In this document: positions 46,594 to 64,000 of the stretch, piece by piece | Layout of the letters: each line of letters starts with the position of its first letter | How positions within the stretch are numbered: position 1 is the stretch's first letter | NCBI GenBank assembly: GCA_963745235.1 | Contig: CAVUXE010000003.1 | Coordinates: 64,001 to 128,000 of the forward strand | Direction: 5' to 3' | Length of the DNA: 64,000 bases | Origin: an uncultured Spirochaetota bacterium | GTDB lineage: Bacteria > Spirochaetota > Spirochaetia > SZUA-6 > Fen-1364 | Translations under genes and position numbers: made by a program | Notes under the pieces: model-generated | What the model saw: the letters and a program-made list of their open reading frames with translations, nothing else | Databases searched by the model: none | Told to the model about the DNA's origin: nothing

Positions 46594-48129
46594 CTACGCC
46601 TGCAGGAAAGGGATGCTCACCGTGAACACGCTGCCCGCCCCAGGGGCGGACTCCACGGCAACCGTGCCCTGATGCAGCTCGGCGAGGCGCTTGACGAGGC
46701 TCAGGCCCAGGCCCGTGCCGGGGATGCTCGCGGTGAGCTCGTTCCTCGCGCGGTAGAACTCTTCGAAGACTTTCGCTTTTTCCGCGGGCGACATCCCGAT
46801 GCCGTCATCTCTCACGCTGACCGTCGCATAGATCCCCGCGCAACCCATGCTCACCTCGACGCGACCGCCCTCCCGGCCGTACTTGATGGCATTCTCCACG
46901 AGGTTGGAGAACACGATGGAGAGAGCCTCCCTGTCCGCAAGCACCAACGGGGCCGGCCCGCAGGGTGTCGGGGCATCGCAGACGGACACGGTTATCCGCT
47001 TTTCCGCGGCACGCTCGGCATAGGCTGCCGCGACGTCCTTGAGGATTGCTCCCATGTCCACAGGCGTGCGCTTCAGAGTGAAGTTCCCGGTCTGAATGGC
47101 CGTGAGGTTCAGAAGCTCATTCACCATTCCGCGCAGGGTCCGCACCCGCAGGAGTGACCTCTGGATCATGTGGCGCTCTTCCTCGGGGTTTTTCACGAGC
47201 ATTCCGCTCAGGATGAGGTTGAGCCAGCCTTCCGTGGCCGCCAGGGGGCTCTTCACCTCATGGGCAACCATGGAGACGAACATTGACTTCGCGGTCTCCA
47301 GCTTCTTGAGAGCGGTGATGTCGCTGAACACGGCCACGGCGCCGCTGGTCACCCCGCCCGGCTCGATCACGGGGCTTGCGTTCACCATGTATGTTTCCTT
47401 GCCGAGGGGGATCTCCCGGGAAAGGATCATGGGGCCGCCGGGGGAATCGATGATCAGCTGGAGGATCTCCTGGACGTCCGTATTGTGGATCTCCGCGAGG
47501 GGGAACGGGATCTCGTTTCTCGCGCACTGCGACAGGATGCGGGCCGCGGCGTCGTTTCGCAGCACGACCAGCTTTTCCATGTTGACTACCAGGATCCCGT
47601 CTGTCATGCAGGTGATGATGGTGTTGCTCTTGGAGCGCTCGGAGGCGAGCTCCAGGAGGCGCTTTTCCCTTTCCGCCAGGAGGCGCTTGGCGCTCAGCGT
47701 CAGGGCCCTTTTCTCCAGGCCGTTCTTGATTGCGAGGAGAAGCTCGTCCGCGGTGAACGGCTTGGGGATGAAGCTGTATGCGCCCTGGCGCGTCCCCTCC
47801 ACCGCTGTGTCGATAGTGGCATGTGCCGTGATGATGATGCAGACGATATCCTCATCACGCGCACGCACCTCGCGCATCAGCTCCAGGCCCGACATTCGCG
47901 GCATCTGCAGGTCTACCAGGAGGACGCTGAAAGGTCCTCTTTCCAGGAACTGCTCCAGCCCCGCCTTGCCGTCGCCCGCGGTGATGACGTCGTACCCTTC
48001 GGAGGAAAGGATCTTCCGGCAGCCCTCGCGGACCCCGAGCTCGTCATCCACCACCAGGATGCGCTCGGAGGCTTCTGCGCCCACGGGTTTTGCGCTCACC
48101 GGTTCTCCGCTCACTGGTTCCCCAGTCAC
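46594..48129 (-). CDS. Receiver-PAS-histidine kinase
   Basis: ILVVDDE..VDLQMP..KPF; AHEVKSPL; NLVENAIKY; GTGLGL. Confidence 0.92.
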   Translation of the reverse strand: MTGEPVSGEPVSAKPVGAEASERILVVDDELGVREGCRKILSSEGYDVITAGDGKAGLEQFLERGPFSVLLVDLQMPRMSGLELMREVRARDEDIVCIIITAHATIDTAVEGTRQGAYSFIPKPFTADELLLAIKNGLEKRALTLSAKRLLAEREKRLLELASERSKSNTIITCMTDGILVVNMEKLVVLRNDAAARILSQCARNEIPFPLAEIHNTDVQEILQLIIDSPGGPMILSREIPLGKETYMVNASPVIEPGGVTSGAVAVFSDITALKKLETAKSMFVSMVAHEVKSPLAATEGWLNLILSGMLVKNPEEERHMIQRSLLRVRTLRGMVNELLNLTAIQTGNFTLKRTPVDMGAILKDVAAAYAERAAEKRITVSVCDAPTPCGPAPLVLADREALSIVFSNLVENAIKYGREGGRVEVSMGCAGIYATVSVRDDGIGMSPAEKAKVFEEFYRARNELTASIPGTGLGLSLVKRLAELHQGTVAVESAPGAGSVFTVSIPFLQA

Positions 48130-48575: not shown

Positions 48576-48967
48576 CAGGGCTCCCTTCCAAGGGCCTTGT
48601 TGACCATGGCAAGGAGCAGCTGGGGGTCCACCGGCTTTTCCAGCAGTGCATCAACGGGGAGCCACGTGTGATCCGGTTCCAGTCGGAACGGGATGGAATC
48701 ATTCACCGAGGTGATCATGACGAGGGGAATGGTGCGCGTGATCTCGGAGTTCCGAAGCTCCCGAGAGACGTCGAAGCCGTCGTTGGGGCTTTCCATCACC
48801 ATGTCCAGGATGATGAGGTCCGGACGTTTCCTCTCCACCTCGTCCAGGCACTGCTTTCCATTGAAGGCCACCCGCACCGTGTAGCCGTTTTCCGTCAGGA
48901 GGGCCCGGTTCATCTCCACGAAATCCGCGTCATCGTCCACAAGAAGCACCGTCTTATCCCACCCCAT
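48575..48967 (-). CDS. Stand-alone response regulator receiver
   Basis: LVDDD, ILDMVM, ITS, EKP; GGAGGAG RBS. Confidence 0.9.
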   Translation of the reverse strand: MGWDKTVLLVDDDADFVEMNRALLTENGYTVRVAFNGKQCLDEVERKRPDLIILDMVMESPNDGFDVSRELRNSEITRTIPLVMITSVNDSIPFRLEPDHTWLPVDALLEKPVDPQLLLAMVNKALGREP

Positions 48968-50966
48968 GGATCTCCTCCCTGGTCCTGTCGCCAACGGGGA
49001 TGCGCACGTGGAAGGTTGTACCCTTTCCCACCTCGCTGTCCACCGTGATGTCTCCCGCATGCATCTTCACGACCCCGTACACGATGGACAGCCCCATGCC
49101 GCTGCCTTTGCCCAGCTGCTTCGTCGTGTAGAAGGGAGTGAAGATGTCCTTGAGCGTTTCCTGCGGCATCCCGCTGCCCGTGTCCCTCACGCGGAGCACG
49201 GCGAGGTCACCGGATTCCGAGAGGCCGACGCTGACCACCACCTCGCCGCCCGCCTCCCCGTTGATCGCGTCGATGCCGTTCTGCACGAGGTTCACGAGCA
49301 TCTGGCGGATCTGCTCTCCGTCCGCGCTGACCCGGGGCATTGCCTCCTGGACCTCTGCCCGCACCCGCGTCCCGCTGTCGGCAAGTTTCATGTTCATGGA
49401 ATCAGCGATGTCATGGGCAATGAGCCCCAGGTCAGTTGGGGTCTTCACCACCCGCGACTGTCGGGCGAAATCCAGGAGGCCGCGCATGATGGACCTGCAC
49501 CGGTTTGCCTCGTTCACGATCATCTGGATGTCCTCCGACTCCGCATCCCCCTCGCGGTGGGCCTTCAGGAGCATGTGGGAGTACAGGAGAATGGTGGAAA
49601 GCGGGTTGTTGATCTCGTGGGCCACCCCCGCGGAGATCTGGCCCATGGAAGCGAGGCGCTCCGTCTGGACCAGCCTGTCCTGCGTGGCCTGGTGGGACTT
49701 CTGGAGCACCGCGAGGGTCATCTCCAGCTCTTCCACCAGGTAGGGAAGGCACATGCTCACCTCGGCAATCCCCTGGCACACGGCAATGGCCTTCTCCCTG
49801 CAGGACGGGTAGCCGCATGACCCGCAATCCAGCTGGTCCTCGGGCCCGAACTTGCGCATGAGGCGCAGCGTGGCTTCAATGTCCTGCTCGGCCGGCTGCG
49901 GCAGGACCACCGCGTCCTCCGCGAACTCCCTGCGCAGGTCGATGTCGGCAAACTCCGCAATTGTCTCCCCCATGTCGCGGCTGGGCTGGCTCTCGTTCCG
50001 CGCATGGATGTAGTCCGTGAGCATCTCCCTGCGCGCCACGGCGCCCATGGTCCCCGGCATCCGGGGCCCGTTCAGACAGCCTTCGCAGAAAAGGACGTCG
50101 AACATGCGCGCCTTGCTCCTGCCTTCGGCCAGCTCCCTCAGCGCGGAGATGACCCGGTCCTTCCCCTCGGTGACGACGACGGTGTTCTGCAGGATGTCAG
50201 CGTCGAATCCGGCGGCGCGAAGAAGGCCTCCGGAGAGCGGGATGGACCGACCGAGGTACGACGCCGGACCGTCGAAGTCCGACGGCGGGAACGACGTCGG
50301 GTCCACGGCTGCCGTCCGCCACAGGGCGGAAAGCTCCTCATAGGTCAGCACCGCGTCCACGGTCCCTTGAACGAACCTGTCCCGTATTTCCGCCTTCTTG
50401 GCGATACAGGGACCGACGAATACCACCCGCACTCCCGCCCCGAACCTCCGCTTGATTGCGCGCGCGGTCGCGATCATGGGGGAGACGATGGGAGCCAGCG
50501 CGCCGTGCAGGGAAGGCAGGTATTTCTGGACGTAGGACACGATGGCGGGGCACGGGGTGCTCACCACGGGCTGGCTTGCCCTGATGGCCTGGCGAGCCAG
50601 GATGGCGTACTCCTGGCTGATCAGCTCCGCCCCGAATGCCACTTCCCAGACCTGGGAGACTCCCAGGGCTCGCACCGCGGACACGATCCTGCCCGGCTCG
50701 ATTCCCGCGAATGCCACCGGGAACGAAGGGGCGAGACAGGCAAACACCCGCTCGCCCGCTTCCAGCATCCTGGCAACCGCCATGGAGGAGTCTTCGATCC
50801 TTTTCGCCTTCTGCGTGCAGACTTTCACGCAGTTGCCGCAGGCGATGCATTGCTCCGCGATCACCGTGGCCTGCCCGGAGATGACCTTGATTGCCTTTGC
50901 CGGGCATTCCCGCACGCAGGTGTAGCAGCGGCGGCACTTCTCGGGAATTGTCGAGACTATCCCCAT
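48954..50966 (-). CDS. Sensory [FeFe]-hydrogenase (group C1-like) fused to a histidine kinase
   Basis: 2x[4Fe-4S]; H-domain motifs STPCPA, GPCIAKKAE, LFCEGCLNG; DCGSCGYPSC FeS domain; AHEINNPL and HATPase. Confidence 0.9.
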   Translation of the reverse strand: MGIVSTIPEKCRRCYTCVRECPAKAIKVISGQATVIAEQCIACGNCVKVCTQKAKRIEDSSMAVARMLEAGERVFACLAPSFPVAFAGIEPGRIVSAVRALGVSQVWEVAFGAELISQEYAILARQAIRASQPVVSTPCPAIVSYVQKYLPSLHGALAPIVSPMIATARAIKRRFGAGVRVVFVGPCIAKKAEIRDRFVQGTVDAVLTYEELSALWRTAAVDPTSFPPSDFDGPASYLGRSIPLSGGLLRAAGFDADILQNTVVVTEGKDRVISALRELAEGRSKARMFDVLFCEGCLNGPRMPGTMGAVARREMLTDYIHARNESQPSRDMGETIAEFADIDLRREFAEDAVVLPQPAEQDIEATLRLMRKFGPEDQLDCGSCGYPSCREKAIAVCQGIAEVSMCLPYLVEELEMTLAVLQKSHQATQDRLVQTERLASMGQISAGVAHEINNPLSTILLYSHMLLKAHREGDAESEDIQMIVNEANRCRSIMRGLLDFARQSRVVKTPTDLGLIAHDIADSMNMKLADSGTRVRAEVQEAMPRVSADGEQIRQMLVNLVQNGIDAINGEAGGEVVVSVGLSESGDLAVLRVRDTGSGMPQETLKDIFTPFYTTKQLGKGSGMGLSIVYGVVKMHAGDITVDSEVGKGTTFHVRIPVGDRTREEIHGVG

Positions 50967-51059: not shown

Positions 51060-52830
51060 CTACACCCGCTCCCTCGCGACGTACTTCGTGTGGAGCAGAT
51101 GGTGGGATTTCTCCCCGAGGGGCTTGTGAAGGTATTGATCGTAGATTGCCTTCACCTCGGGGTTGTTGTGAGACTTGCGGATGGGTTTCCCCTCGTCCTC
51201 CTTGTAGATGGCGGCGATCCGGGCTTTGCGCACGTCATCCGTAGTGAGCCGCGGCTGACCGCCGCCGCCGATGCACCCACCCGGGCACGTCATGACCTCG
51301 ATGAAGTGATATTGCTCGCCGGAGTGAATCCGCTCGATGAGCTTCCGGGCGTTCCCCAGGCCGTGCGCCACGCCGACACGCACCGTCACGCCCTCCAGGA
51401 AGGACCATTCGGGCACGGTTCCTTCGATCTTCACTGCGGCTTCCTTGATCCCCTGCAGCCCGGCGATGGGAGCAATGTGCAGGTTCTCGAAAGGCAGGGT
51501 CCTTCCGGTCACGATCTCGTACACGGTTCGCAGGGCAGCTTCCATCACGCCGCCGGTGTTGGCGAAGATGTCCGCCGCTCCCGACGACGCGCCCAGGATG
51601 CTGTCCATGGCGCCATCCGGCAGGCTCGTGAAATCTATCCCGGCCTGCTTGATCATACGCCCCAGCTCACGGGTGGTGAGGACCACGTCAACGTCACGCG
51701 CGCCGCTCGCGCACATCTCGGGCCTCTGGGACTCGTACTTCTTGGCCGTGCAGGGCATGATCGAGACCACGAACATGTCTTCGGGTTTCTTCCCGATCTT
51801 CTCTGCAAAGTAGGTCTTTGCCACGGCGCCGAACATCTGCTGCGGAGACTTGCACGTCGAGATGTTCGGCAGGATGTCGGGCCAGAAGTGCTCCGCGTAC
51901 CTGATCCACCCGGGCGAGCAGCTGGTGAACATGGGAAGCGCCACCTGCTTCTTGTCCACGAGCGCTCCCTTGAGGCGCGTCAGCAGCTCCGTTCCTTCCT
52001 CGATAATGGTCAGGTCCGCGGTGAAGTTCGTGTCGAACACCCGGTCGAACCCCATCTGCCGGAGCGCGGTGACCATCTTGCCCGTGACGAGCGTTCCCGG
52101 CGCATAGCCGAAGCACTCACCCAGGGCGGCCCGGATGGCGGGAGCGGTCTGAACCACCACGGTCTTCTTCGGGTCGTCCAATGCCTCCCACACGCTGGCA
52201 ATCTCGTCGCGCTCGCTGATTGCGCCCACGGGGCACACGGCGGCGCACTGTCCGCATTGCACGCAGACCACCTCGGAGAGCGGCTGCGCGAACGCCGGGG
52301 CGATCATGGCCTTGAAGCCCCTCCCCTGCGGGAAGATGGCCCCCACTCCCTGCGTCTCCCCGCACACCGTGACGCAGCGCCGGCAGGACACGCACTTGGC
52401 GGTGTCACGCACGAGCGCCGGAGTGCTCAGCGTCGGTCATGCGCCTGCTCTTCGCTCCGGCGAAGGTGACCTGGCGGATGCCCAGGTCACTCGCAATGGC
52501 CTGCAGCTCGCAGTCGACGTTGCGGTCGCAGGTCTGGCAGTCCCCTTCGTGGTCGGAGAGGATGAGCTCAACCACGGTTCGCCGCGCGTTCCTGGCCCGG
52601 GGAGAGTTGGTTTGCACCTCCATTCCCTCCGCCGCCATGGTCACGCAGGAGGGCATCAAGGTCTTTGCGCCTTTCACCTCCACCAGGCACACGCGGCAGC
52701 TCCCGATGGCCTGCACGCTCTTGAGGTAGCACAGGGACGGGATCTTGATCCCCGCCAGCCGGGCGGCTTCCAGCAGGTTCGTCCCGGCCGGGACCTGGAT
52801 CTTCCTGTTGTCGATGGTCAAAGCTGGCAT
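51060..52830 (-). CDS. hydA: Group A [FeFe]-hydrogenase catalytic subunit (HydA/HndD), +1 indel near 52430
   Basis: [2Fe-2S], His-ligated and 2x[4Fe-4S] motifs; FTSCSPGW, MPCTAKKYE, EVMTCPGGCIGGGGQP. Confidence 0.95.
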
Positions 52831-52831
52831 G

Positions 52832-55800
52832 TCAGTTGGCTCCTTCTTCTCGATAGTCGCACCGCAGGCACCGCTTGCTCTCCGCGAGCGCGGCCCCGCA
52901 CGGCAGCGTGAGCTCCACCTCCGCAAAGGTCCCGCTGCGCTTCGCAATCGGGATGAGCTTCACCGCCGGCCTGGCGCCCGCCACGGGATCCGCGTCCGGA
53001 TCGAACTGCGCGTCAGACACGCGGCAGGTCCGCCACGGCGCATGACTCTCTCCCGTCAGGTACGCGTCGATTCCGGCAGCCGCTCTCTCCCCCGCGGCGA
53101 TTGCCTCCACGACGGAGGAAGGGCCGCTGACGGCGTCACCCGCCGGCGAACACCCAGTCCACCGAGGTCTGTCCCGTGACCGGGTCAGCCCACAGGTACT
53201 CCCGCTCGTTCTGTTTCACCGCGACCCCGTCGAAGAGCGCGGAAGGCACGAGCTTCTGCCCGATGGCGGCGATGACCATGTCTGCCTCCAGGCCGGAAGT
53301 CGTTCTCGCCCTTTGCCACGGGTTTCCTGCGGCCCGTCCGGTCGAAATCACCAAGGTCCATTGTGCGGAACTTTACGGCCGTGAGCTTTTCACCCTTCCT
53401 CACAAGCTCCAGCGGAGCCGCAAGGAACTCGAAGCGCACGCCTTCCCTTTCCGCCTCTTCCACCTCTTCCGCGAAAGCCGGCATCTCCGCCCGCGTGCGT
53501 CGGTAAACCACCGTGGCGCTCTGTGCCCCCAACCGAAGGGCCGTGCGCGCCGCATCCACCGCCGCGTTCCCTCCCCCGATGACCACGACGTTCCTGCCGA
53601 CCCTGGCTTTCGAGGTGAGGTTGTATTCCTTGAGGAACCCCAGCGCGTCCACGACTCCCTTCCCGTCTTCTCCGGCCATGCCGAGGCTCATTCCCTGGGG
53701 AGCGCCGACTCCGACGAACACGGCTTCGTATCCCTGCTCCTTGAGGCCGGCCAGCGTGAAGTCGGTCCCGAGCTTCTTCTTCGTCCTGATGGTCACGCCC
53801 ATGTCGGCAATCATGTCGATCTCCCGGTCCAGGATGTCGCGCGGGAGGCGATACGCAGGGATGGCCTGCCGCAGCATGCCTCCTGGTTTGCTCTCAGCCT
53901 CGAACACCGTGGGCTTGTAGCCCAGGCGCGCCAGGAAGTACGCGCAGGAAAGGCCCGCGGGGCCGGCGCCGACAACCGCGATCTTCCGCTCGCCGTTCTT
54001 TCCGTCCGCAATGGGATCCGGGAGCTGGGGAGTCTTCTCCTGGTCCGACAGGAACCTCTTGACCGCTCGAACGGACAGGGGCTCGTCCAGCGTGGACCGC
54101 CGGCACTTGCCCTCGCAGGGGTGGAAACAGACCCGGGCGCAGACCCCGACGAACGGGTTTCTCTCCCGGTGCAGCTTGAGGGCCTCGTTGTAGCGCTTTT
54201 CGCCGGTGAGGCTCACGAAGCCCGGGACGTCCACGCCCGCGGGACACGCGTTCTGGCAGGGCGCCCGCACCAGCTCCGCGCACACCCCCGCGCGGCACTT
54301 GTGGTCCCTGATGTGCTCCACGAACTCATCGCGGAAGTAGCGGATGTTGGAGAGAACCGGGTTCGGGGCGCCCTGCCCCAGGGCGCAGAGGGCCGTGTCC
54401 TGGATCGTCTTTCCCAGCTCGATGAGCCGCTCGATGTCCCCTTCCTCACCCTTCCCGGCGCAGATGCGGTCCAGGATCTCCAGCATCCTTCGCGTGCCGA
54501 CCCGGCAGGGCGTGCACTTGCCGCAGGACTCGTCCTGCGTGAACTCCAGGAAGAACCGGGCCATGTCCACCATGCAGGAGTCCTCGTCCATGACGATCAG
54601 GCCGCCGGACCCCATGATGGCGCCCAGCTGCACGATGGACTCGTAGTCGACGGGAACGTTCAGGTGCTCCTTGGGGATGCGATCCGCCGGACGGTCCGCC
54701 CATCTGCGCCGCCTTGAACTTCTTCCCGTTGGGGATCCCGCCGCCAATGTCGTAGATGATCTCCCCCAGCGGCACGCCCATGTTCACCTCGACAAGGCCG
54801 ACGTTGTTCACCTTGCCGGTGAGCGCGAAGATCTTCGTCCCGGGGCTCTTCTCGGTCCCGACGGACCGGAACCAGGCCGCTCCGTTGGTGATGATGAGGG
54901 GAATGTTCGCCAGCGTCTCCACGTTGTTGAGCACCGACGGCTTCTCCCAGAGGCCCGCGTCGGACGGGAACGGCGGCCGCGGCCGCGGCTCTCCCCGCTT
55001 TCCTTCGATGGACCGCATGAGGGCCGTCTCTTCGCCGCAGACGAATGCGCCGGAACCCCTGGCGATGTCGATGTCGAAGTCAAAGCCGGTGCCAAGGATG
55101 TCCGTGCCCAGGAGGCCACGCTCACGGCACTGGTTGATGGCAATGGTGAGCCGCTCGATTGCAAGCGGGTATTCCGCCCTGCAGTAGATGTATCCCTGGT
55201 GCGCGCCGATTGCCCGGGCGCCGATGATCATGCCTTCGATGACCGCGTGCGGATCGCTTTCCAGCACGCTCCTGTCCATGAACGCGCCCGGGTCTCCCTC
55301 GTCCGCGTTGCACAGGAAGTACTTGATCTCCGATTTCGAACGGGATGCGAACTCCCACTTGGTGCCCGTGGGGAAGCCCGCACCGCCGCGGCCGCGAAGC
55401 CCCGACTTCTTGACCTCTTCCGTGATGCCCTGGGGAGTCATCTCGAGGAGCGCCTTTGCCGTCGCGATATAGCCCCCCCGCCCGATGTACTCCTCGATGC
55501 TCATGGCGGAGATCCTGCCCTTGTTGTGAAGCACGCGCAGGTTCTGCCGGGCAAAGAACGGGATATCGGCGTAGTGGGGGATCACTGCCTGCGTGATGGG
55601 ATGGCGGAACATGAGCCTTTCCACCGGTCTCCCTTTCAGCACGTGCTCCTCAACGAGCTCCGCCATGTCCTCCGGCGTGAGCTTCTGATAGAAGAATCCA
55701 CCCGGGTACACCACCATGATGGGGCCGCACGCGCAAAACCCGTTGCAGCCTGTCTGGACCACCGCCACCTCTCCCGTGGCGCGCGCATCATGCATGTCTT

Positions 55801-55930
55801 CAATGGAAACGGCATCCGTGAGCTCGTGCGCCGCCAGCTCCTTGACGAGCGCGTCGCGCACCCTTTGCGCTCCCGAGGAGACGCAGCCCGTGCCGAAGCA
55901 CATGAGGAGATGCATCCGTGTCGTCTTCAT
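52832..55930 (-). CDS. hydB: NuoF-like HydB/HndC subunit fused to a GltD/NfnB-like FAD/NADPH oxidoreductase; three indels (near 54681, 53292, 53140)
   Basis: GRGGAGFP, NADEGDPGAFMDR, FVCGEET, GGPSG, ESCGKCTPCR; then CQNACP, CARVCFHPCEGKC, GAGPAG, GGGNAA..YRR, FAGGD, CLRCD. Confidence 0.9.
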
Positions 55931-56349
55931 GCTCTTGCCCTCCCCTGCTTCTTCTCAGCGTCCGAGGGCTCGCTGCCCACGTACACGACATAGGCACCCG
56001 CCGACTTGCCCGCCAGGGTCTGATGGAAGACTTCCCTGACGGTCGCGCCGTCCAGGTGGCCGTACAGCACGGGCTGAGCGCCGAGGGTCTCCACTGTCAT
56101 CACCGGCTCGTGCTCGCACGCCCCGATGCATCCCGAGGTGGTGAGCCTGATGTCGGTGCGGCCGCTCTTCTCCAGCTCTTCGGCCAGCGCGTTCACCACG
56201 TCCCTGGCTCCGCTTGCAATACCGCAGGTGCCCATATGCACGGTGAAGCACATCCTGTAGCCGTCCTCTCGCAGGGCCGCTTTCTTCTGCGCCTCGTCAC
56301 GAATGGCCAGGATGTCCTGGAGACTCCGTATCTTTTTTGTCTCAGCCAT
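55927..56349 (-). CDS. Thioredoxin-like [2Fe-2S] ferredoxin subunit (HndB/HydD)
   Basis: MGTCGIASGA, SGCIGACEHEP. Confidence 0.88.
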   Translation of the reverse strand: MAETKKIRSLQDILAIRDEAQKKAALREDGYRMCFTVHMGTCGIASGARDVVNALAEELEKSGRTDIRLTTSGCIGACEHEPVMTVETLGAQPVLYGHLDGATVREVFHQTLAGKSAGAYVVYVGSEPSDAEKKQGRARA

Positions 56350-56971
56350 GGACCTTCACTCCCTTCTTTGCCGTCGCGCGGGCGCCCCTGGCCGCGGGCT
56401 TTCGTGGCCTGGCCGCTTTCCCCGGTTCAGCGGCGGCCGGCTCCCGGTAGCGCGCAAGTATCTCGCGGATCTTCGCCGGCCGCACGCGTTTGTGCACCTC
56501 TTCATCAATGGAGACGGCCGGCGCCAGGCCGCAGGCGCCGAAACAGCGGGCCACTTCGAGACTGAACATCCCGTCTTTCGTGGTTTCCCCCACCTCGATG
56601 CCGAGCTCCTTGCGCATGGCCTCCAGCACCTGCTTGCCGCCCCTCACGTAGCAGGCGGTCCCCAGGCAGACGCGGATCACGTGCCTGCCGCGCGGCTGCG
56701 TGGAGAAAAACGCGTAGAAGCCGACGACCCCCGCCACCTCGCTGTAGGACTTGCCCATCTCCCGGGCAATCCTTTTCAGCACGTGCTCCGGCAGGAAGCC
56801 ATAGATGCCCTGCGCCATCTGCAGCACGGGGATGAGGGCACCGGGCTTGTCCCGGTGCTCCGTCAACACCTCCCCGAGCCTGTCCTGCAGCTCGGCCTCG
56901 GTCGCCTGCCCGCAGCAGGCGTCGGAAACGCGCGGCATACCGCGCTGCGCCGCACCAGTCACCTCGTTCAT
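56342..56971 (-). CDS. hydC: NuoE-like [2Fe-2S] subunit (HydC/HndA)
   Basis: LIPVLQ, CLGTACYVRG, CFGACGLAP. Confidence 0.93.
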   Translation of the reverse strand: MNEVTGAAQRGMPRVSDACCGQATEAELQDRLGEVLTEHRDKPGALIPVLQMAQGIYGFLPEHVLKRIAREMGKSYSEVAGVVGFYAFFSTQPRGRHVIRVCLGTACYVRGGKQVLEAMRKELGIEVGETTKDGMFSLEVARCFGACGLAPAVSIDEEVHKRVRPAKIREILARYREPAAAEPGKAARPRKPAARGARATAKKGVKVHG

Positions 56972-56984
56972 GCTGTTCTCCTCT

Positions 56985-57530
56985 CTATCTGGTCACGTCC
57001 AGGGCGTCGAGCCCTTCGGCAATTTTCTCCCGCATGCGCCGCGCCAGGCCGATCTCCCCCCGCTGGCCCGCCGGCAGCGAACGGGCTATGTCCGTGGTGC
57101 TCACGCGCCATTCCCGGTCAGCCACCCGCAGCAGGCTGCGCAGCTCCACGCCCGGGTTCGTGCACACCACGGATGCAAGAGTCCCGGCGAGATCTCCCAG
57201 CGGGCTGCGGTCCACGCTGGAAAGAGGGATGCTCGCCTGGACGCTGAGCCCACCCAGCGGGGACCTGCCCAGCTGGAAGGTCCCACCGGCCTGCTCGGCG
57301 CGAAACTTGAAGAGGCTCAGGCCCAGCCCTGTTGTCTTTCCCTCCTTGGTGGAGAAGAAAGGGTCAGCGGCGACGTCTCCGGAGACGCTCAGGCCCGGAC
57401 CATCGTCTTCCACGCGGATTGTCATGATGTCCCGGGACGGCTCTTCCTCCAGGGACACCGTGATGACCGCGGCGCCGGCACGGATGGAGTTCTCCAGCAG
57501 GTCGAGGATGTGCAGGGATATCTCACGCAA
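56985..57530 (-). CDS. Hydrogenase-associated HATPase_c (kinase-like) protein lacking an H-box
   Basis: TTG start; REISLHILDLLENSIRAGA, DDGPG, DPFFST, GLGL, DRSPLGD. Confidence 0.85.
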   Translation of the reverse strand: MREISLHILDLLENSIRAGAAVITVSLEEEPSRDIMTIRVEDDGPGLSVSGDVAADPFFSTKEGKTTGLGLSLFKFRAEQAGGTFQLGRSPLGGLSVQASIPLSSVDRSPLGDLAGTLASVVCTNPGVELRSLLRVADREWRVSTTDIARSLPAGQRGEIGLARRMREKIAEGLDALDVTR

Positions 57531-58284
57531 AGGAGCACCTCCTCCCATCCGCGCCCCGGAGGGCCAGGGCAAGCTCCGCAAAGGCGGGCTCGCGAACGTC
57601 CAGCACGGTAAAGCCTGACCCGATGTCGCTGAGGAAGTGCCCGTCCGAGGAGCACAGGAGCGGCAGCCCGTGCTCCTGCCACGCCGAGGCCGTGCCCCGC
57701 GCCGCTCCCGCCGCCGACACCTCGAGGCCGTCGAACGGCACGTCGGGGGGAAGGAAGCCGAGCTGGCCGGGCACGCTGAAGCTGCGCCTGTCCATGTGCG
57801 CGGCCACGGCAAGCCCGCCATGTCTATGAATCAGCGTCACGGCGTCGCACAGGCTGAAGAGGCTCGCGGCCGCGAGCATCTTCGGCTCGATCCCCGTGAT
57901 GTTTCCGTCCGCATCCACGAGCTCCTGCTCGCAGCTGCGGCTGCCGGACGCCGGGGCGCGGGACAACAACGGCCGCCAGGCGGGAAGCCCCTCCCGCACC
58001 TCCTCTGATGCCGCGAAAGCGGCTGCTTCGTCCGGGAAGAAGCCCAGGACGTGGACTTCCTCCCGGGTGGTGATCTCCATCCCGGGAATGACACGGGGGC
58101 CGCCGAGTGACTCGGAGGCCTTCCTGACCGCAAGGACATTCCCGGCGCTGTTGTGGTCGCACACCGCTATCATCGCCATCCCCTTTTCCATTGCTTCACG
58201 GACGATGGCGCGGGGCCGCATCTGCCGCGACGCGCAGGGAGAAAGGACCGTGTGGATGTGCAGGTCCGCGGCGCATCGGATCAT
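57523..58284 (-). CDS. PHP-domain phosphoesterase
   Basis: DLHIHT.LSPC, CDHN, EITTREEVH, AAH, SSDGH. Confidence 0.9.
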   Translation of the reverse strand: MIRCAADLHIHTVLSPCASRQMRPRAIVREAMEKGMAMIAVCDHNSAGNVLAVRKASESLGGPRVIPGMEITTREEVHVLGFFPDEAAAFAASEEVREGLPAWRPLLSRAPASGSRSCEQELVDADGNITGIEPKMLAAASLFSLCDAVTLIHRHGGLAVAAHMDRRSFSVPGQLGFLPPDVPFDGLEVSAAGAARGTASAWQEHGLPLLCSSDGHFLSDIGSGFTVLDVREPAFAELALALRGADGRRCSFA

Positions 58285-58637
58285 CCCTTCGTTTTTCCTC
58301 GAAGCCCCAGCGCGTAGAGCTTCCCCGCCGTGTCGAAGGTCGACTCCCGGGTGGCGAACAGGCTGATTTTCTCCGCGGCCGCCCTGGCGCGCACGTCCGC
58401 GGGAGGCCTCATTCCCGAGGCAAAAACAACCGCCGCAAGGCCGGCATGGACGGCTACCGCCACGACATTCATGTGAACCTGGATGGTGATGAGCAATCCG
58501 CCGGCCGGAGCGTTGGCAAGCACGTCGCTGAGGAGGTCGGAGGCGTGCGCCGCATCCACGTTTCCCGCTTCGTCCATGGGAAGCTCGGTGGTGAGGTTCT
58601 CCAGGCCGAGTGCGTCCGCGATCTGTCTCAGCTTCAT
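58281..58637 (-). CDS. DRTGG/HPr-kinase-N-like small protein
   Basis: MKL.QI...L.L, SDLLSDVLA, NVVAVA. Confidence 0.82.
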   Translation of the reverse strand: MKLRQIADALGLENLTTELPMDEAGNVDAAHASDLLSDVLANAPAGGLLITIQVHMNVVAVAVHAGLAAVVFASGMRPPADVRARAAAEKISLFATRESTFDTAGKLYALGLRGKTKG

Positions 58638-60199
58638 CTGTGCTTCTCCGTGAATGGGCAATCTGCCCGGTCTGCCCGGCCCATGACGACATCCTCCGCG
58701 AATGCCGCGCAGGAGGGAGCGCCGCAGGAGCCGCAGTCCCTGCCGGGCAGGGAGCGCGTTTCCCCGTCTATGCGGGAGAGCTTCCGAATTGCCTCACCCA
58801 TGGCGGCATCCAGCCTCAGGCCCGGACGCTGCGCGAAAGGCATTGCCCGCGCGGCGACCCCCGCAGGCACGCCCGGCGTCGCAGGAACGGTCTGCCACAT
58901 GCCGGCGAGCTCCGGCTGCGAGCCAAGGAGAGGGGATGCGGAGCATCCTCCCGCGCAGAAGCGAAGGTCCAGGACGGCCGCGCGGCCCAGCGCTCCGGTC
59001 TCAGCGCGGGAAAGGACCCTCATCACGCTGCGGGCACCGCTTGCAGCCAGCTCGCCGGGCTGCAGGGACGCGAGGGGGGGAACGGTGACACCCAGGGGGC
59101 GACGGACGGCAGGCTGGACGTCCAGAAGAGGCCGGATGGCTGCCTTCAAAGCAGCCGGAGAAACGACTGTCAGCCTTTCCGTGAGGCTGGACCGGGCGCA
59201 CTCCCCGTATTGTCCCGGGCATGCGGCCACAAGGAATACTGGACGCAAAGGGAACTCCTCGCAGGCTGTTTCGGCTGGTGAATGAAAGACGCAAAGATTC
59301 GGAATGAGGGAGGGGAACCTGCTTTCGATCACCGCCGCAACAGGCGGACATAGCGGAGGGATTCGAGGGAGAGGGAGCTCCCGTGCCGCGGCTTCGCGCC
59401 GGGCCTCCGCCAGAAGCGACTCCTCCCACTCCTCGAGCAGCCTCATCTCGGTGAACCCGAGCTCGCGCAGCGCGGAGAGAACCTGCTCCGGGGGGCGGAT
59501 GCCGAAAAGGGCAGCGAGCAGCCCGCTGGGTGCAAGGAGAAGTGCGTCCGCCGGGACACCCGGCAGGGGCGCGCGCGGGATGTCAAAGGCCCTGTCAGGG
59601 CACTCCTCGATGCACGCAGTGCAGCCGATGCACAGGTGCTCCAGGAGAACGGGGCGCCGGTCCCGGGCGCGAATTGCTCCCACGGGGCAGGCAAAGATGC
59701 ATCTCCGGCAGCCTCTGCAGCGATCCGTGTCCACCACCAGGGGTGTTGACGAAACGGGAGCCTGTGCCGGAGAGGGCGAGCCCGTCCCGAAGAGAATCGT
59801 GGACCTGATGCGCGTGCCTCGGCCCACCCTGGTCTCGATCTGGAAATGGTCGCTGTTTCGACGGATATTCGGAAGGCCGAGGCCGGCTCCGAACCCCATC
59901 TGCCGGGCCTGCTCGGAGGCCGTGGACCAGCCCTCCTGCAAGGCAAGCTCGACATCGGGTATCCCCGGGCCCTCGTCAGCAACCTCCAGGTCGAGCTTCG
60001 TCTCATCCACGCGGGCCCACAGGGTGCCGGTGCGGGCGTGGATGACCACGTTCATCTCCGCTTCGTAGGCGGCAATCATTGCGCGTCGCAGGACGGAGGC
60101 ATCCACGCCGAGCTTCGAAAGCTGCTCCTTGAGCTTCCGCGCCGCAAGGCCGGCGGAATCGAAGTCCCCTCCCGCAATTCGAAAGCTCAGCGTGATCAT
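58634..60199 (-). CDS. RsbT-like Ser/Thr kinase fused to 2x[4Fe-4S], a degenerate [FeFe]-hydrogenase-like domain and a C-terminal FeS domain
   Basis: YEAEMNVVIH, DEGPGI, GWST, GFGAGLGLPN; CRGCRRC..CP and CIGCTAC..CP; PLCPP, AACPGQ, FCAGGC; LPGRDCGSCGAPSC. Confidence 0.85.
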   Translation of the reverse strand: MITLSFRIAGGDFDSAGLAARKLKEQLSKLGVDASVLRRAMIAAYEAEMNVVIHARTGTLWARVDETKLDLEVADEGPGIPDVELALQEGWSTASEQARQMGFGAGLGLPNIRRNSDHFQIETRVGRGTRIRSTILFGTGSPSPAQAPVSSTPLVVDTDRCRGCRRCIFACPVGAIRARDRRPVLLEHLCIGCTACIEECPDRAFDIPRAPLPGVPADALLLAPSGLLAALFGIRPPEQVLSALRELGFTEMRLLEEWEESLLAEARREAAARELPLPRIPPLCPPVAAVIESRFPSLIPNLCVFHSPAETACEEFPLRPVFLVAACPGQYGECARSSLTERLTVVSPAALKAAIRPLLDVQPAVRRPLGVTVPPLASLQPGELAASGARSVMRVLSRAETGALGRAAVLDLRFCAGGCSASPLLGSQPELAGMWQTVPATPGVPAGVAARAMPFAQRPGLRLDAAMGEAIRKLSRIDGETRSLPGRDCGSCGAPSCAAFAEDVVMGRADRADCPFTEKHR

Positions 60200-60549
60200 T
60201 GCGGCGGCACCTTCTCCGCGCCCAGGCACTGCGCGGCGCGCGCGCAAAGGTTTTCACGGCTTGCCCGCGATACCAGGAGCGCGGCGCCGGCTTCGCGGGC
60301 GAGTGCCACGACCCCCGCGTCAGGTTCCTTTCCATCAGAAAGACAGATCCCCGGAACGTCCATCAGCTCCGCCACCCGGATAAGCTGACCATTGGCAAGC
60401 GAGGTGATAAGAAGTGTGCCGGGACCGGCGTTTGCGATGAGGTCGCTCATTGTCGCTCCGCCGTAGACGCGGAGGACATCCGGGTTTGCCGGTCCGCTCG
60501 GGACGACCAGGCGGGCTTCGATGGCGCTAGCAAGCTGTTCGACCTTCAT
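60196..60549 (-). CDS. DRTGG-like small protein, first gene of the hydrogenase operon
   Basis: MKVEQL, TMSDLIA, LLITSL.N.QLIRVAEL, GKEP. Confidence 0.82.
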   Translation of the reverse strand: MKVEQLASAIEARLVVPSGPANPDVLRVYGGATMSDLIANAGPGTLLITSLANGQLIRVAELMDVPGICLSDGKEPDAGVVALAREAGAALLVSRASRENLCARAAQCLGAEKVPPQ

Positions 60550-60588
60550 GAAGCCTTGATCCAATTCGACAGGATCGCTTCGATATAT

Positions 60589-60604
60589 TGCAAGCGTTGT
60601 GCCA
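60589..60604 (-). promoter_or_regulatory. sigma54 -24/-12 promoter of the hydrogenase operon
   Basis: TGGCAC-AACGC-TTGCA on the minus strand, matching TGGCAC-N5-TTGCW exactly, 40 nt upstream of ATG 60549. Confidence 0.85.
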
Positions 60605-60755
60605 ATCGTGAATTCAGTCTCGATCAAGTTGGCGGGCTTCGAGATCGAAATATCACAATGGGATCAAGTCTTTCCGCTGTAATGAGATGTGATCGTCAGG
60701 CTTCAGGGGGAATTCCGGCATTCAAAAAGGGCTAAACGTCCTCAGGCATCGTTTG

Positions 60756-60789
60756 TGGGCATATCTTGCACATGGGCGACTTATGCACA
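60756..60789. promoter_or_regulatory. Tandem 17-bp dyads, candidate enhancer (UAS) for a sigma54 activator
   Basis: TGGGCATATCTTGCACA directly followed by TGGGCGACTTATGCACA, about 150-185 bp upstream of the -24 box. Confidence 0.6.
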
Positions 60790-60803
60790 CCCGGGCGCGT
60801 CAG

Positions 60804-62714
60804 CTAGTCTGCTCTGCCGAGGGCGTTCTGAACAGCGGAAATGAGGGCCTGAAGGCTGTGGGGCTTTTCTACAAGGCCAAGTGCGCCCTCGCGAAGGAGC
60901 TCCTGGGCGGAGCTGTCGATGACATGGCCAGTCGTGATGAGCACGCGCGCCTGGGGACTGGCTTCCCTGAGAAGCCGCAGGCACTCCTTCCCGCCCATGC
61001 CCGGCATGACCAGGTCCAGCACCACCAGGTCGATGCCGATGCCATTTCCGAATCTCGCCAGGCCTTCCCTGCCGTCCCTGGCGGTAACCACCGCGTACCC
61101 GCAGCTTTCCAGCATCCGTGTGATCACCTGCCGCACCTGGGGATCATCATCGACAACGAGGATGGTGCCGTGGCCGCGGGAGAAGCCCTGCTCTGAAGCT
61201 CCCTGCGGGGAGGTCCCGTCCGTCTGTTCGCTGCGCTCGCTCAGCGGCAGGAAGAGCTCAAACGTGGAGCCCTTTCCCGGAACGCTTGTCACCTCGATGA
61301 AGCCATTGTGGCTCGCGACGATTCCGTAGACCACGGCGAGCCCGAGCCCCGTGCCGCTGCGCACCGCCTTCGTGGTGACAAAGGGAATGAACAGTCTCTC
61401 GAGCATCTCCGGCGGCATTCCGACGCCCGTGTCGCGAACCGACAGCACGACATACTTTCCCGGCCGCCCGCTCACGTATTTTGCCGCCTCTTTCTCCGTC
61501 AGCTCCACCACGGACGTCCCGATGGTGAGAGTGCCGCCGGCAATTCCTTCCGCCCGCTCCATCATTGCATCCCGGGCGTTCAGGCAAAGATTGACAAGCA
61601 CCTGGCTCATCTGGTTGGGATCAGCCTCGATATTCACGGCGTCGGGAGAGAAAGACAGCTCGATGGCGATCTTTGGCGGAAAGGTCCTCTTGATGAGCTG
61701 CCACGTCTCACGGGCGATGTTGTTCAACGACACGGTCTGGCGCGTCCCCGGTGACTGCCGGGTGAAGAGGCGAAGCTGGCGGGTCAGCGCGGCGCCGCGG
61801 TCCACCGCGGCCCGCACCTGGATCAGGTCCTCGTACATCACGGTATCCCGCGGCGCTTCGATCAGGAGAAGCTCCATGTAGCCGTTGATGGCGGTGAGGA
61901 GGTTGTTGAAGTCGTGGGCGATCCCGCCGGCCAGCATTCCCAGGGCGTCCATCTTCTGGACCTGGAGGATCTGGGCCTGGAGTCTCTTGCGCTCGGTGAT
62001 GTCGACCACGGAGGACATCAGGCCAATGGCCCTGCTTTCCTCGTTTCTGACCACGGAAGCGGACAGCTCCACGCTGAACACGACGCCGTCCTTGCGGCGC
62101 GCCACAAGCTCCCCCCGCCACCCCCCCGAGCGGGGAAGGAGCTGCACGATGTCGCGAGCTTTTTCCCCGACCCAGATGTCTCCCATGGGAGCGCCGATGG
62201 CTTCGGCGGCGGACGCGTAGCCCCACATCTGCAGGAACGCGGAGTTCACCCACGTGATCTTCCCGTCAAGGTCCGCCAGCACGATCCCGTTGATCGAGGT
62301 ATTGATGGCGTGATTCTTGATGAAGAGCTCCTGGCTCTGGCTTTCCAACGCGGCGGAGAGCGCGTGACGCAGCTGTTCCTGGTCCGTGAGAATCTGCTGC
62401 TCGCGGGATTTCATGAAACCTGCAAGAAGCGCCTCAATGAAGGCGTCGGCGGCCGTGAGCGATTCCTGATTCCGCAGCCGCGTGCTGAGAAGCAGGATCG
62501 TTCTTTCGCCGAGTCCCTCCCTGGCAAGCTTCTGGCCGACCCCGGACGGGTCGGCAGCCGGGTCCTTTTCGATGAACCCGAGGAAAGAGCCCGCAAGCTC
62601 CTGTCCGATCTCCAGAAGACGGCGCGGATGCAGGGAATACCGGTTCTCGAACGCCGATTCACGCAGGCTCGAGCCGAGTGCATCCCCAAGAGTCTTCAGA
62701 GCGGACTCGGTCAT
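60804..62714 (-). CDS. Hybrid histidine kinase: helical N-terminal (RsbR-N-like) domain + PAS + HisKA/HATPase + receiver
   Basis: AHDFNNLL, NLCLNARDAM, PFVTTK, GTGLGL, VLDLVMP. Confidence 0.9.
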   Translation of the reverse strand: MTESALKTLGDALGSSLRESAFENRYSLHPRRLLEIGQELAGSFLGFIEKDPAADPSGVGQKLAREGLGERTILLLSTRLRNQESLTAADAFIEALLAGFMKSREQQILTDQEQLRHALSAALESQSQELFIKNHAINTSINGIVLADLDGKITWVNSAFLQMWGYASAAEAIGAPMGDIWVGEKARDIVQLLPRSGGWRGELVARRKDGVVFSVELSASVVRNEESRAIGLMSSVVDITERKRLQAQILQVQKMDALGMLAGGIAHDFNNLLTAINGYMELLLIEAPRDTVMYEDLIQVRAAVDRGAALTRQLRLFTRQSPGTRQTVSLNNIARETWQLIKRTFPPKIAIELSFSPDAVNIEADPNQMSQVLVNLCLNARDAMMERAEGIAGGTLTIGTSVVELTEKEAAKYVSGRPGKYVVLSVRDTGVGMPPEMLERLFIPFVTTKAVRSGTGLGLAVVYGIVASHNGFIEVTSVPGKGSTFELFLPLSERSEQTDGTSPQGASEQGFSRGHGTILVVDDDPQVRQVITRMLESCGYAVVTARDGREGLARFGNGIGIDLVVLDLVMPGMGGKECLRLLREASPQARVLITTGHVIDSSAQELLREGALGLVEKPHSLQALISAVQNALGRAD

Positions 62715-63505
62715 TTTTCCAGAATGACGCCCTGCATGGTCACGGAGTCCTGTTTCATCGTTTCTTCCTCAACGGCCGTCTTCATGCCGATCCACTCTTC
62801 CAGGGGCAGGAAGCCGGGCTCCCTCACTCTCCATGGCCGTATCAGCTGCTGGAGAGTATCCAGGGGTCGGAACCTCATGGGTTGGCCGAGCCCCTTGTAG
62901 ATGTTGAAGATCTCCTGCAGCGTGGGTGATATGGCCTCTCCCTGCAGGCACATGTCGCAGAGGAAGAGCCGGGAACCCGCATCCGCCCAGTCGTAGAGGG
63001 CTTTCATTGCATGGCCGATGGCATCGTCACTCAGAAAAAACGCGACTCCGTTGATGCCGAACGCGATCCTTCGGCTGGTTCCGAAAAACTCCGTGACCAC
63101 GGGCGCGCCCAGGAGATCCTCCGGCGTGCCCACGTTGCAGGCGACGTAGCGTGCGTTGGGGTTGTCCTTCAGTATTTCCTGCCCGTACGCGACGGTGACG
63201 GGGTCGATGTCGGAATAGATGACCTTCGTGCCCGCCGGGGTGATCTGGTGGATGTGATCGATTGTCGGCAGTCCCGAGGCAAAATCGATGAACTGGGTGT
63301 ATCCATCCGCCGCGAGCCGTCTCACCGCCTCGCCAAGGAACCAGCGGATGAGCCGGAGAACTTTCGGGAGAAAAGGTGCCTGCTTGAGGACTTGCTGGGT
63401 CGCCTGTCTGTCCACGTCGAAATTGTGGTTTCCTCCCAGCATGAAGTCGTACATCCGGCCGGCGTTGGGCTTGCTCGAATCAGCGATTGACGCGTACTCA
63501 GGCAT
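62711..63505 (-). CDS. SAM-dependent methyltransferase (Methyltransf_19 / actinobacterial type)
   Basis: PNAGRMYDFMLGGNHNFDVDR, QFIDFASGLPT..H.H, YSDIDPV. Confidence 0.88.
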   Translation of the reverse strand: MPEYASIADSSKPNAGRMYDFMLGGNHNFDVDRQATQQVLKQAPFLPKVLRLIRWFLGEAVRRLAADGYTQFIDFASGLPTIDHIHQITPAGTKVIYSDIDPVTVAYGQEILKDNPNARYVACNVGTPEDLLGAPVVTEFFGTSRRIAFGINGVAFFLSDDAIGHAMKALYDWADAGSRLFLCDMCLQGEAISPTLQEIFNIYKGLGQPMRFRPLDTLQQLIRPWRVREPGFLPLEEWIGMKTAVEEETMKQDSVTMQGVILEK

Positions 63506-63640
63506 TGTGACTCCTCTTCCCCTCTCTCCAGTATCATCGCGGAAAAGGGGGCCCATAGCAAGGTTCGCCGCACCTGGATGAAAAAGGCGGCGTCCGGCGT
63601 GGCCGCCCCGGGGGACAGGGTCACACGCGCGCGGCTGGAA

Positions 63641-64000
63641 TCAAGCTCTGCCCAGACGCTGCGGGGTTATCACGTTGGAAGTCCTGTCCAGGACCAGGCG
63701 TACTCCGCTCATCGACTGGGCAACCGCGAAAGGCACATGGCAGAGCTCCACGAGCACGCCACGGTGGATCTCCCCTGCTGCCGCGACAGTGGATTCCTTG
63801 TTCTTGTCCAGCAAGGCAGCAAGGCCTTTCGCGGAATCGCTCATCTTGTGCATTGCGGTCTTCAGATTGTCACGAGCCTGGAGAAGGTGCGGGTCCCCCT
63901 GCCCCCGAGCGGCAAGCCTGGCCTCCACGTCCTTGAGCGCGAGGCCGAGCTCCGCGTTCTTGTCCTTGATCCAGGCAAGCTTCTGCTGAACCCGGGAGTC
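63641..64000 (-). CDS. C-terminal fragment of a second DUF342/FapA-like protein
   Basis: Coiled coil followed by VAAAGEIHRGVLVEL, resembling the tail of the 3467 protein (VRGTLFPGAVIE). Confidence 0.6.
   Translation of the reverse strand, partial: DSRVQQKLAWIKDKNAELGLALKDVEARLAARGQGDPHLLQARDNLKTAMHKMSDSAKGLAALLDKNKESTVAAAGEIHRGVLVELCHVPFAVAQSMSGVRLVLDRTSNVITPQRLGRA

Follow-up and report, generated by a model that had tools for sequence, protein, structure and literature searches.

The window analyzed here, a stretch of 64,000 nucleotides from an uncultured Spirochaetota bacterium (GenBank assembly GCA_963745235.1, contig CAVUXE010000003.1, positions 64,001 to 128,000 of the forward strand), carries on its minus strand a cassette with the gene order DRTGG, kinase::sensor, DRTGG, PHP, second GHKL ATPase and then hydC–fd–hydB–hydA. 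The kinase::sensor gene encodes, in a single chain, a Ser/Thr kinase domain of the GHKL type and an [FeFe]-hydrogenase-like iron–sulfur (Fe–S) module (Table 1). This fused variant of the gene pair formed by a group D sensory hydrogenase and a kinase is real, widely distributed and conserved, and its di-iron pocket is remodeled. Group D sensory hydrogenases precede the main H2-producing enzymes of many anaerobes, and the fused protein makes their signaling route directly testable by experiment. Its hosts live in peat and soil, where H2 turnover feeds methanogenesis: the eight sequencing runs holding at least half of the sampled words are peat and soil metagenomes from four studies (the fractions of these words in the RNA runs X19 and X20 are just 0.09 and 0.07).

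In the list of open reading frames (ORFs), the frame of the fused gene stays open over 58634..60247 and encodes 537 residues from a TTG codon; read from the ATG (MITLSF...), it encodes 521 residues with no internal stop. The ATG at 60199 is the supported start, because the consensus N-terminus of the 61 aligned homologues, MITxSYRIxGGDF, agrees with it and because it overlaps, as ATGA, the stop codon with which the upstream gene terminates at 60196. The same arrangement is found at the other end, where the stop codon of the fused gene overlaps the ATG of the downstream DRTGG gene. A preliminary description of this DNA, made from its letters, had claimed one uninterrupted ORF of 521 residues and singled out the junction near 59780 as the place to look for a stop or an indel. 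There is neither: four contigs from four public runs and four studies span the linker with 0 gaps, one of these runs being possibly the source sample of the window assembly, and comparison with contigs of other runs revealed no inserted or deleted letters within 58634–60199. The fused ORF is therefore real.

The domain architecture announced in the preliminary description, a GHKL anti-sigma-type kinase and a hydrogenase-like Fe–S module in one polypeptide, is borne out by both Pfam and Foldseek. Pfam places HATPase_c/HATPase_c_2 at residues 18–134 (HATPase_c_2 E 1e-8), two Fer4 domains at residues 155–203, a weak and partial Fe_hyd_lg_C match at residues 237–312 (E 1.3e-6, 28.7 bits) and FeS (PF04060) at residues 484–516 (E 1.5e-13); it yields no PAS hit in the fused protein. 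An AlphaFold2 model built from the 61-sequence alignment has a mean pLDDT (predicted local distance difference test) of 84.4 and a pTM (predicted template modeling score) of 0.81, and is clearly disordered only at residues 141–149 (pLDDT < 50) and 487–495. When this model is searched with Foldseek, about 140 N-terminal residues match SpoIIAB (1til_E, TMt 0.83, root-mean-square deviation 2.3; 0.81–0.83 and 2.1–2.7 Å over the SpoIIAB-type matches as a whole), and about 380 C-terminal residues match [FeFe]-hydrogenases (8ryh, E 9.4e-12). Note that the NCBIfam SpoIIAB score, 39.9 bits, is under the cut-off of 135, and that "RsbT" is the JGI name for many of the homologues.

All the elements of this architecture are conserved. 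In the alignment of 61 homologues (48–94% identity), the kinase N-box (N50), G1 box (D75–G79) and G2 box (G102–G108) are invariant in 61/61, as are the ferredoxin-type cysteines (C161, C164, C167, C171, C190, C193, C196 and C200) and those of the C-terminal motif (C489, C492, C497 and C514). At E <= 1e-5, 724 relatives were found among the 8000 candidates scored; the best 120 of them are 48–100% identical to the fused protein, most with 98–100% coverage (68–93% for nine shorter ones), and contain PF02518 in 120/120, PF04060 in 118/120 and PF02906 in 105/120 cases.

Fused and split forms of the kinase–sensor pair

A genome scan with one genome per species gave 587 relatives, the best 80 loci of which were used. 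One open frame runs through both halves in 22 of these 80 loci (two of them, L001 and L047, are cut by contig ends), which come from Spirochaetota, Verrucomicrobiota, Planctomycetota, Actinomycetota and a "Deltaproteobacteria" metagenome-assembled genome (MAG), that is, from five phylum-level labels. The other 58 loci, from Bacillota, Bacteroidota, Chlorobiota, Acidobacteriota and further groups, have a stop between the halves; in L034, which is counted here, a single in-frame TGA interrupts what is really a fused gene. In an independent sample of Bacillota, where 30 loci were found with the sensor part alone, 30/30 are split. The early statement that the two parts are usually separate adjacent genes thus agrees with the 58 split loci listed among the best 80 (L034 excepted) and with the whole Bacillota sample; the fusion is common and old, not rare or local.

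In a maximum-likelihood tree of the sensor parts (80 rows; L001, L034 and L047, shorter than 300 residues, were left out), the 21 full-length fused rows form one clade (support of 100 in the Shimodaira–Hasegawa-like approximate likelihood ratio test), whose stem measures 1.48 changes per column. Within it, the protein of the window groups with the Spirochaetota rows. In this quick, midpoint-rooted tree, where the outgroup branches are long and the basal fork is open, the clade is placed with the split rows of group D and away from the window's own group A and group C proteins.

The split loci carry an ordinary gene boundary at the position of the linker, with a stop, a ribosome-binding site and a start codon; all three stop codons are used, and some junctions have two or three stops. 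Kinase and sensor lie in the same reading frame in 58/58 split loci among the best 80, a list whose frame statistics are biased toward same-frame pairs. This figure is a selection effect of the locus ranking, since the unbiased Bacillota sample gives the same frame in 12/30 loci and another frame in 18/30. A conserved in-frame stop with read-through at the split junction was considered and rejected, given these ordinary junctions and frames.

The surroundings of the gene are conserved as well. Synteny was counted by tblastn with the window proteins, at loci with a long enough flank: (i) a homologue of the upstream DRTGG-like protein is present in 22/23 fused and 49/56 split loci; (ii) a homologue of the downstream DRTGG protein in 20/20 and 45/55; (iii) the PHP protein in 19/19 and 44/52; (iv) NuoF, within 5 kb, in 16/16 and 22/43. 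The misses among split loci are expected because of their divergence from the window queries. At the split locus of Caldanaerobacter subterraneus (L074), the order is DRTGG, a 142-residue kinase, a 434-residue M2e sensor, DRTGG, PHP, NuoE, HATPase, Fd, NuoF and HydA, which is the order of the window except that the NuoE and HATPase genes are swapped. The "one-component" system of the preliminary description consequently does not hold, as the fused gene sits in a conserved multi-gene cassette.

These features coincide with those of a known type of sensor. According to excerpts from PMC3561251, TTE0887, Cthe_0335 and others are "group D M2e" sensory hydrogenases, whose genes precede those of trimeric bifurcating hydrogenases and have protein kinases nearby. 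TamHydS of Thermoanaerobacter mathranii, the type enzyme of this group, has the same order of two [4Fe-4S] clusters, H-domain and C-terminal Cx2Cx4Cx16C motif, and no PAS domain (excerpts from PMC8163306 and PMC13104023), this C-terminal motif being the one that defines M2e/M2f enzymes (PMC8163306, same excerpts). In group D as in the fused protein, the proton-relay Cys299 is absent, and the gene, which adjoins a kinase-like ATPase gene or is fused to it, precedes a trimeric bifurcating hydrogenase. The differences are that the kinase here is part of the same polypeptide, and that K358, the Ser/Thr at M353 and P354 are all replaced. The comparison with TamHydS was made via its relatives, the sensor part being about 28% identical to the Caldanaerobacter protein. 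Altogether, the gene is the fused form of the known pair of a kinase-like ATPase gene and a group D (M2e) sensor gene. Literature searches linking hydrogenase with DRTGG and PHP, RsbT with bifurcating enzymes, or HydS with an anti-sigma kinase returned nothing, though earlier hydrogenase surveys may mention such fusions; the excerpts available from a hydrogenase review and a genome survey (PMC6288185, PMC9431212) contain no passage on sensor kinases.

The remodeled H-cluster pocket

The four cysteines that bind the H-cluster, C284, C327, C415 and C419, are invariant in 61/61 homologues, in line with the four retained cysteines of the preliminary description. An HMMER alignment to a Desulfovibrio hydrogenase sets TSCCP of the P1 motif against PPLCP, which corrects the earlier reading PLCPP, with Leu283 opposite the first Cys; the proton-relay Cys has therefore become Leu and the cluster-binding Cys is kept. 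The P2 motif is AACPGQYGE, where Q330 (present in 59/61 homologues) takes the position of K358, and the P3 motif is CAGGCSASP, both as first described, including the loss of the Lys. The fused protein thus matches none of the catalytic group A motifs TSCCP, MPCxxKxxE and CxxGCxxGGGQP.

To what extent the pocket differs between fused and split forms was assessed by counting columns of the sensor-part alignment (22 fused vs 57 split sequences, CpI numbering). At K358, 0/22 fused sequences have K (19 Q, 3 E), compared with 55/57 split ones. At M353, 57/57 split sequences have S/T and 0/22 fused ones do (V, A or I instead; Ala325 in the fused protein of the window). P354 is P in 57/57 split sequences and in 1/22 fused ones, and the third residue past the bridging Cys is G in 57/57 split sequences but S (20) or T (2) in the 22 fused ones. 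The Cys299 column is variable in both sets alike. The K358 pattern extends to a wider set from a library-wide search, clustered at 50% identity into 119 representatives with a length of 380 residues or more: the 47 kinase-bearing representatives include 0 K/R (36 Q, 6 E, 5 other), and the other 72 include 44 K and 7 R.

Lys358 is important for insertion of the cofactor, beyond its contact with cyanide. Excerpts from PMC10147833 describe K358, P324 and Q325 as closely contacting the distal CN of [2Fe]H, and P354 as one of the residues forming the cavity of the di-iron site; the replacement of M353 by a hydroxyl donor (Ser/Thr) is called well conserved in M2e enzymes (excerpts from PMC8163306). 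The residues changed in the fused clade are therefore exactly those of the second sphere of the di-iron site, and the replacements are themselves conserved; the fused form is a distinct, selected variant. The pocket of the fused clade has been rebuilt, with K358 turned to Q/E, M353 to A/V and P354 to A/S, and the eroded motifs of the preliminary description give way to a conserved set of replacements of the clade's own. A clade-wide swap of the cyanide-binding Lys amounts to a natural experiment on whether signaling needs the di-iron site. A literature search on Lys358 and hydrogenase found no report.

A group C sensor lies in the same window, at the other end of the operon. This HydS-His-kinase and group C (M2f) TmHydS share with the fused protein the hydrogenase-like module, the accessory clusters, the C-terminal FeS motif, a signaling domain and the hydABC neighborhood (excerpts from PMC8163306). 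Group C sensors couple via PAS or HisKA–HATPase_c domains, as two-component systems, and keep Lys358 (the P2 motif of the window's sensor is CIAKKAE), whereas the fused protein couples at its N-terminus to a Ser/Thr-type kinase and is devoid of the Lys.

Cofactor, partners and proposed working

The ORF, the domains, the fusion, the conservation, the synteny and the residue pattern are direct observations, from which we infer what is sensed, which protein is phosphorylated and which cofactor is bound. That the protein is the sensor kinase of a group D cassette is very probable. As evidence of the Rosetta-stone kind, the fusion designates the SpoIIAB-like kinase as the direct partner of the sensor, and its occurrence across several phyla names this kinase as the partner of group D sensors; in excerpts from a 2026 paper (PMC13104023), identifying the interaction partner(s) is still the critical next step for TamHydS. 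A second partner is designated by fusions of another kind: in 3/30 Bacillota loci (L091, L094 and L098, in genomes G159, G121 and G034), the sensor runs on from its C-terminal cluster domain into a DRTGG domain, giving proteins of 570–580 residues, which points to the downstream DRTGG protein. In 54 sequences of this protein, D34, L35, L36, S37, V39 and N57 are invariant, and the Ser of the D-L-L-S-x-V stretch is a candidate phospho-acceptor. A complex prediction for the fused protein and the downstream DRTGG protein scored 0.00, which speaks neither for nor against binding.

As for the cofactor, the canonical di-iron site is judged slightly more likely to have been lost than kept in the fused clade; since the pocket has been rebuilt, a redox sensor with Fe–S clusters only is judged likelier than a true H2-splitting sensor. 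The Fe_hyd_lg_C match points the same way, with 28.7 bits in the fused protein vs 151.7 and 325 bits in the two other hydrogenase-type proteins of the window. The Lys that contacts the distal cyanide is gone, and the [4Fe-4S]-only state proposed in the preliminary description stands as a live possibility. Its "Fe–S redox or O2 sensor kinase" very probably holds as regards the sensor kinase; nothing favors O2 over redox or H2 as the signal.

In the working that we propose, the Fe–S module, made up of two ferredoxin-type clusters, a [4Fe-4S] cluster on the four H-cluster cysteines and the C-terminal cluster, would gain or lose electrons with the redox or H2 state of the cell. The covalent link would carry this change to the kinase domain at the N-terminus, which has intact ATP-binding motifs, and the kinase would act on a partner encoded in the cassette, the best candidate being the downstream DRTGG protein, in which the DLLS motif is invariant. 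The PHP phosphoesterase would then reset the switch, and the output would tune the adjacent hydrogenase. Taken as a whole, with the Fe–S-only reading included, this chain from redox sensing to the tuning of the hydrogenase is evenly poised between holding and failing. The regulatory [NiFe]-hydrogenase HoxBC and its His kinase HoxJ follow the same logic, a slow hydrogenase reporting H2 to a kinase that controls hydrogenase genes (excerpts from PMC8163306), with an unrelated metal site, separate polypeptides and a histidine kinase. The fused protein, for its part, is a ready single-chain object for examining whether the redox state of a cluster governs kinase activity.

Several points weigh against the loss of the di-iron site. 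The bridging Cys and the other three H-cluster ligands are invariant; the conserved Gln330 (59/61) could hydrogen-bond a cyanide in place of the Lys; and both HydF and HydG are encoded in the host genome (503.7 and 417.3 bits, respectively). TamHydS, the only characterized group D enzyme, binds the H-cluster despite an altered pocket (excerpts from PMC8163306). Two limits concern the chain as a whole. The sensor tree comes from a quick search and its root is not established, and no STAS, PP2C or sigma domain was found in the 11 proteins scanned (53185–63556; the rest of the genome was not searched), so that a STAS substrate is missing there.

The first three of these points, together with an operon context identical to that of group D sensors, argue for the best-placed alternative, namely a true H2 sensor that would keep the H-cluster complete, with the Lys replaced by Gln, turn over H2 slowly like TamHydS and gate the kinase by H2-driven reduction. 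TamHydS works with a non-canonical pocket, and also without C299 (excerpts from PMC8163306). This alternative is possible but rather less probable than the loss of the di-iron site: there is no K/R at the cyanide contact in the 22 fused loci or the 47 kinase-bearing representatives, Glu being the second commonest residue there, and the Ser/Thr at M353 called well conserved in M2e is lost, as is P354 in all but one of the fused sequences. The low Fe_hyd_lg_C score and the long stem of the fused clade also speak against it, and so does the second hydrogenase-like sensor, which has the Lys, is joined to a His kinase and is encoded at the far end of the operon; this second protein could do the H2 sensing instead. 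The distribution of the maturation proteins does not help to choose. In a census of 20 fused-clade genomes, whose completeness is not given, HydF is above the cut-off in nine, fragmentary in four and not found in seven. Neither HydF nor HydG was found in five Spirochaetota MAGs (G302–G305 and G321, loci L002–L006), where binning loss may be involved; a group A HydA is encoded in all five, above the family cut-off in four. Because genomes without HydF/HydG still encode a group A HydA, the census cannot separate the two cofactor readings.

A bolder form of the Fe–S-only reading is that the kinase-fused clade constitutes a separate class of hydrogenase-derived sensors without a di-iron site, a bacterial counterpart of Nar1. 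In such a class, the redox state of a [4Fe-4S] cluster, or O2, would be converted into Ser/Thr phosphorylation of DRTGG proteins controlling the bifurcating hydrogenase, H2 sensing being left to the HydS-His-kinase. Nar1/NARFL proteins are eukaryotic cluster-assembly factors that have the hydrogenase fold and its Cys ligands but hold Fe–S clusters only. The likeness is a possible analogy, Nar1/NARFL having neither a kinase nor a hydrogenase operon, and we put this idea forward tentatively.

Whether the N-terminal domain phosphorylates its partner is a separate matter. It shares with SpoIIAB, RsbW and RsbT the GHKL fold with N, G1 and G2 ATP-binding boxes, but the cassette has no STAS partner, PP2C phosphatase or sigma factor, and DRTGG proteins and a PHP phosphoesterase stand in their place. 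The domain might thus be a partner-switching, anti-sigma-like binder, in which ATP binding would only serve to grip or release a DRTGG protein or a hydrogenase subunit according to the redox state of the clusters. The closest fold is indeed that of an anti-sigma factor, SpoIIAB, no STAS substrate or sigma factor occurs among the scanned neighbors, and the cassette contains two paralogous small DRTGG proteins. We nevertheless consider a mere binder unlikely, because all the catalytic ATP-binding boxes are invariant, the occurrence of the PHP phosphoesterase in 19/19 fused loci suggests a phospho-switch, and the Ser in the DLLS motif of the downstream DRTGG protein never varies. Lastly, an assembly artefact or decaying gene, with two separate genes joined by a sequencing error, is suggested by the single extra letters that the window carries in hydA and hydB relative to other assemblies, but is exceedingly improbable in view of the gap-free crossing of the linker in four runs and four studies, the 22 fused loci from independent genomes, the homologues of 518–565 residues that span the full length and the invariance of the motifs.

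Neighboring genes of the window

Table 1. Coordinates, in the window, of the fused gene, its domains, the neighboring genes and the contigs spanning the linker
Feature	Coordinates	Strand	Basis
Fused sensor kinase gene	58634..60199	minus	521 residues, stop codon inside coordinates
N-terminal SpoIIAB/RsbT-type GHKL Ser/Thr kinase domain, residues 1–136	59792..60199	minus	Pfam, Foldseek, invariant boxes
Flexible linker, residues 137–153	59741..59791	minus	low pLDDT; site of the spacer in split pairs
Two [4Fe-4S] ferredoxin-type motifs, residues 155–203	59591..59737	minus	Fer4 hits
H-domain-like region, residues ~215–440	58880..59557	minus	Fe_hyd_lg_C, HMMER alignment, Foldseek, column counts
C-terminal Cx2Cx4Cx16C [4Fe-4S] motif, residues 484–516 (C489, C492, C497, C514)	58652..58750	minus	PF04060
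Upstream small DRTGG-like protein, 143 residues	60196..60627	minus	ORF; synteny; MSDVL-type conserved motif
Downstream DRTGG protein, 118 residues from the ATG overlapping the fused-gene stop	58281..58637	minus	DRTGG E 2.2e-5
PHP-domain phosphoesterase	57523..58302 (exact start uncertain)	minus	PHP and PHP_C hits
Second GHKL ATPase, without HisKA	56985..57548 (start inferred)	minus	HATPase_c E 6.5e-12; syntenic in relatives
hydC (NuoE-like), 2Fe-2S ferredoxin, hydB (NuoF + GltD-like), hydA (group A [FeFe]-hydrogenase)	51060..56971	minus	Pfam and NCBIfam hits
Second hydrogenase-like sensor, 670 residues: Fer4, H-domain, FeS motif, HisKA, HATPase_c, without PAS	48954..50966	minus	Fe_hyd_lg_C 151.7 bits
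Junction-spanning contig, X1 record 8	59127-60700		
Junction-spanning contig, X2 record 16	59481-60700		
Junction-spanning contig, X3 record 24	59212-59979		
Junction-spanning contig, X4 record 31	59530-59902		

The upstream DRTGG-like protein has no match in Pfam or NCBIfam. Directly upstream of the cassette lies a gene for a PAS–HisKA–HATPase–REC hybrid kinase (60804–62714, minus strand), a homologue of which occupies the same place in five Spirochaetota loci (L001 and L003–L006). Beyond the window, the end of the contig (G000:C3:140936-145256, L111) is an inverted copy of window positions 59667–64000, with 96.5% identity over 4345 bases. This copy includes the PAS kinase gene and the upstream DRTGG gene, followed by the first part of the fused gene, where the contig ends; the inverted duplication may be genuine, or it may have arisen during assembly as a fold-back or strain artefact.

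The apparent frameshifts in hydA (51060–52947) and hydB (53185–55930) are single extra letters at 52431, 53141/53145, 53291 and 54679. Contigs of other runs omit one letter at each of these sites (at 52431, in all four runs), so hydA and hydB are probably intact in nature, the window assembly carrying indel errors. HydB (53185–55930, minus strand) consists of Complex1_51K, SLBB and NADH_4Fe-4S domains followed by a GltD/NfnB-like part (Fer4_20, Pyr_redox_2); a fused flavoprotein subunit of this kind is unusual in a hydABC operon. The catalytic HydA reads TSCSPGW instead of TSCCPGW (window 51915–51917). The same variant is found in 12/23 group A HydA matches of the fetched loci, Caldanaerobacter included, and from this comparison of sequences it is a common natural form and no defect. 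The second sensor, which keeps a Lys at the K358 position, is followed by a REC–HisKA–HATPase protein at 46594–48129. In 3/5 Spirochaetota relatives (G302, G304 and G305), open frames of 677–710 residues with a weaker hydrogenase match adjoin hydA.

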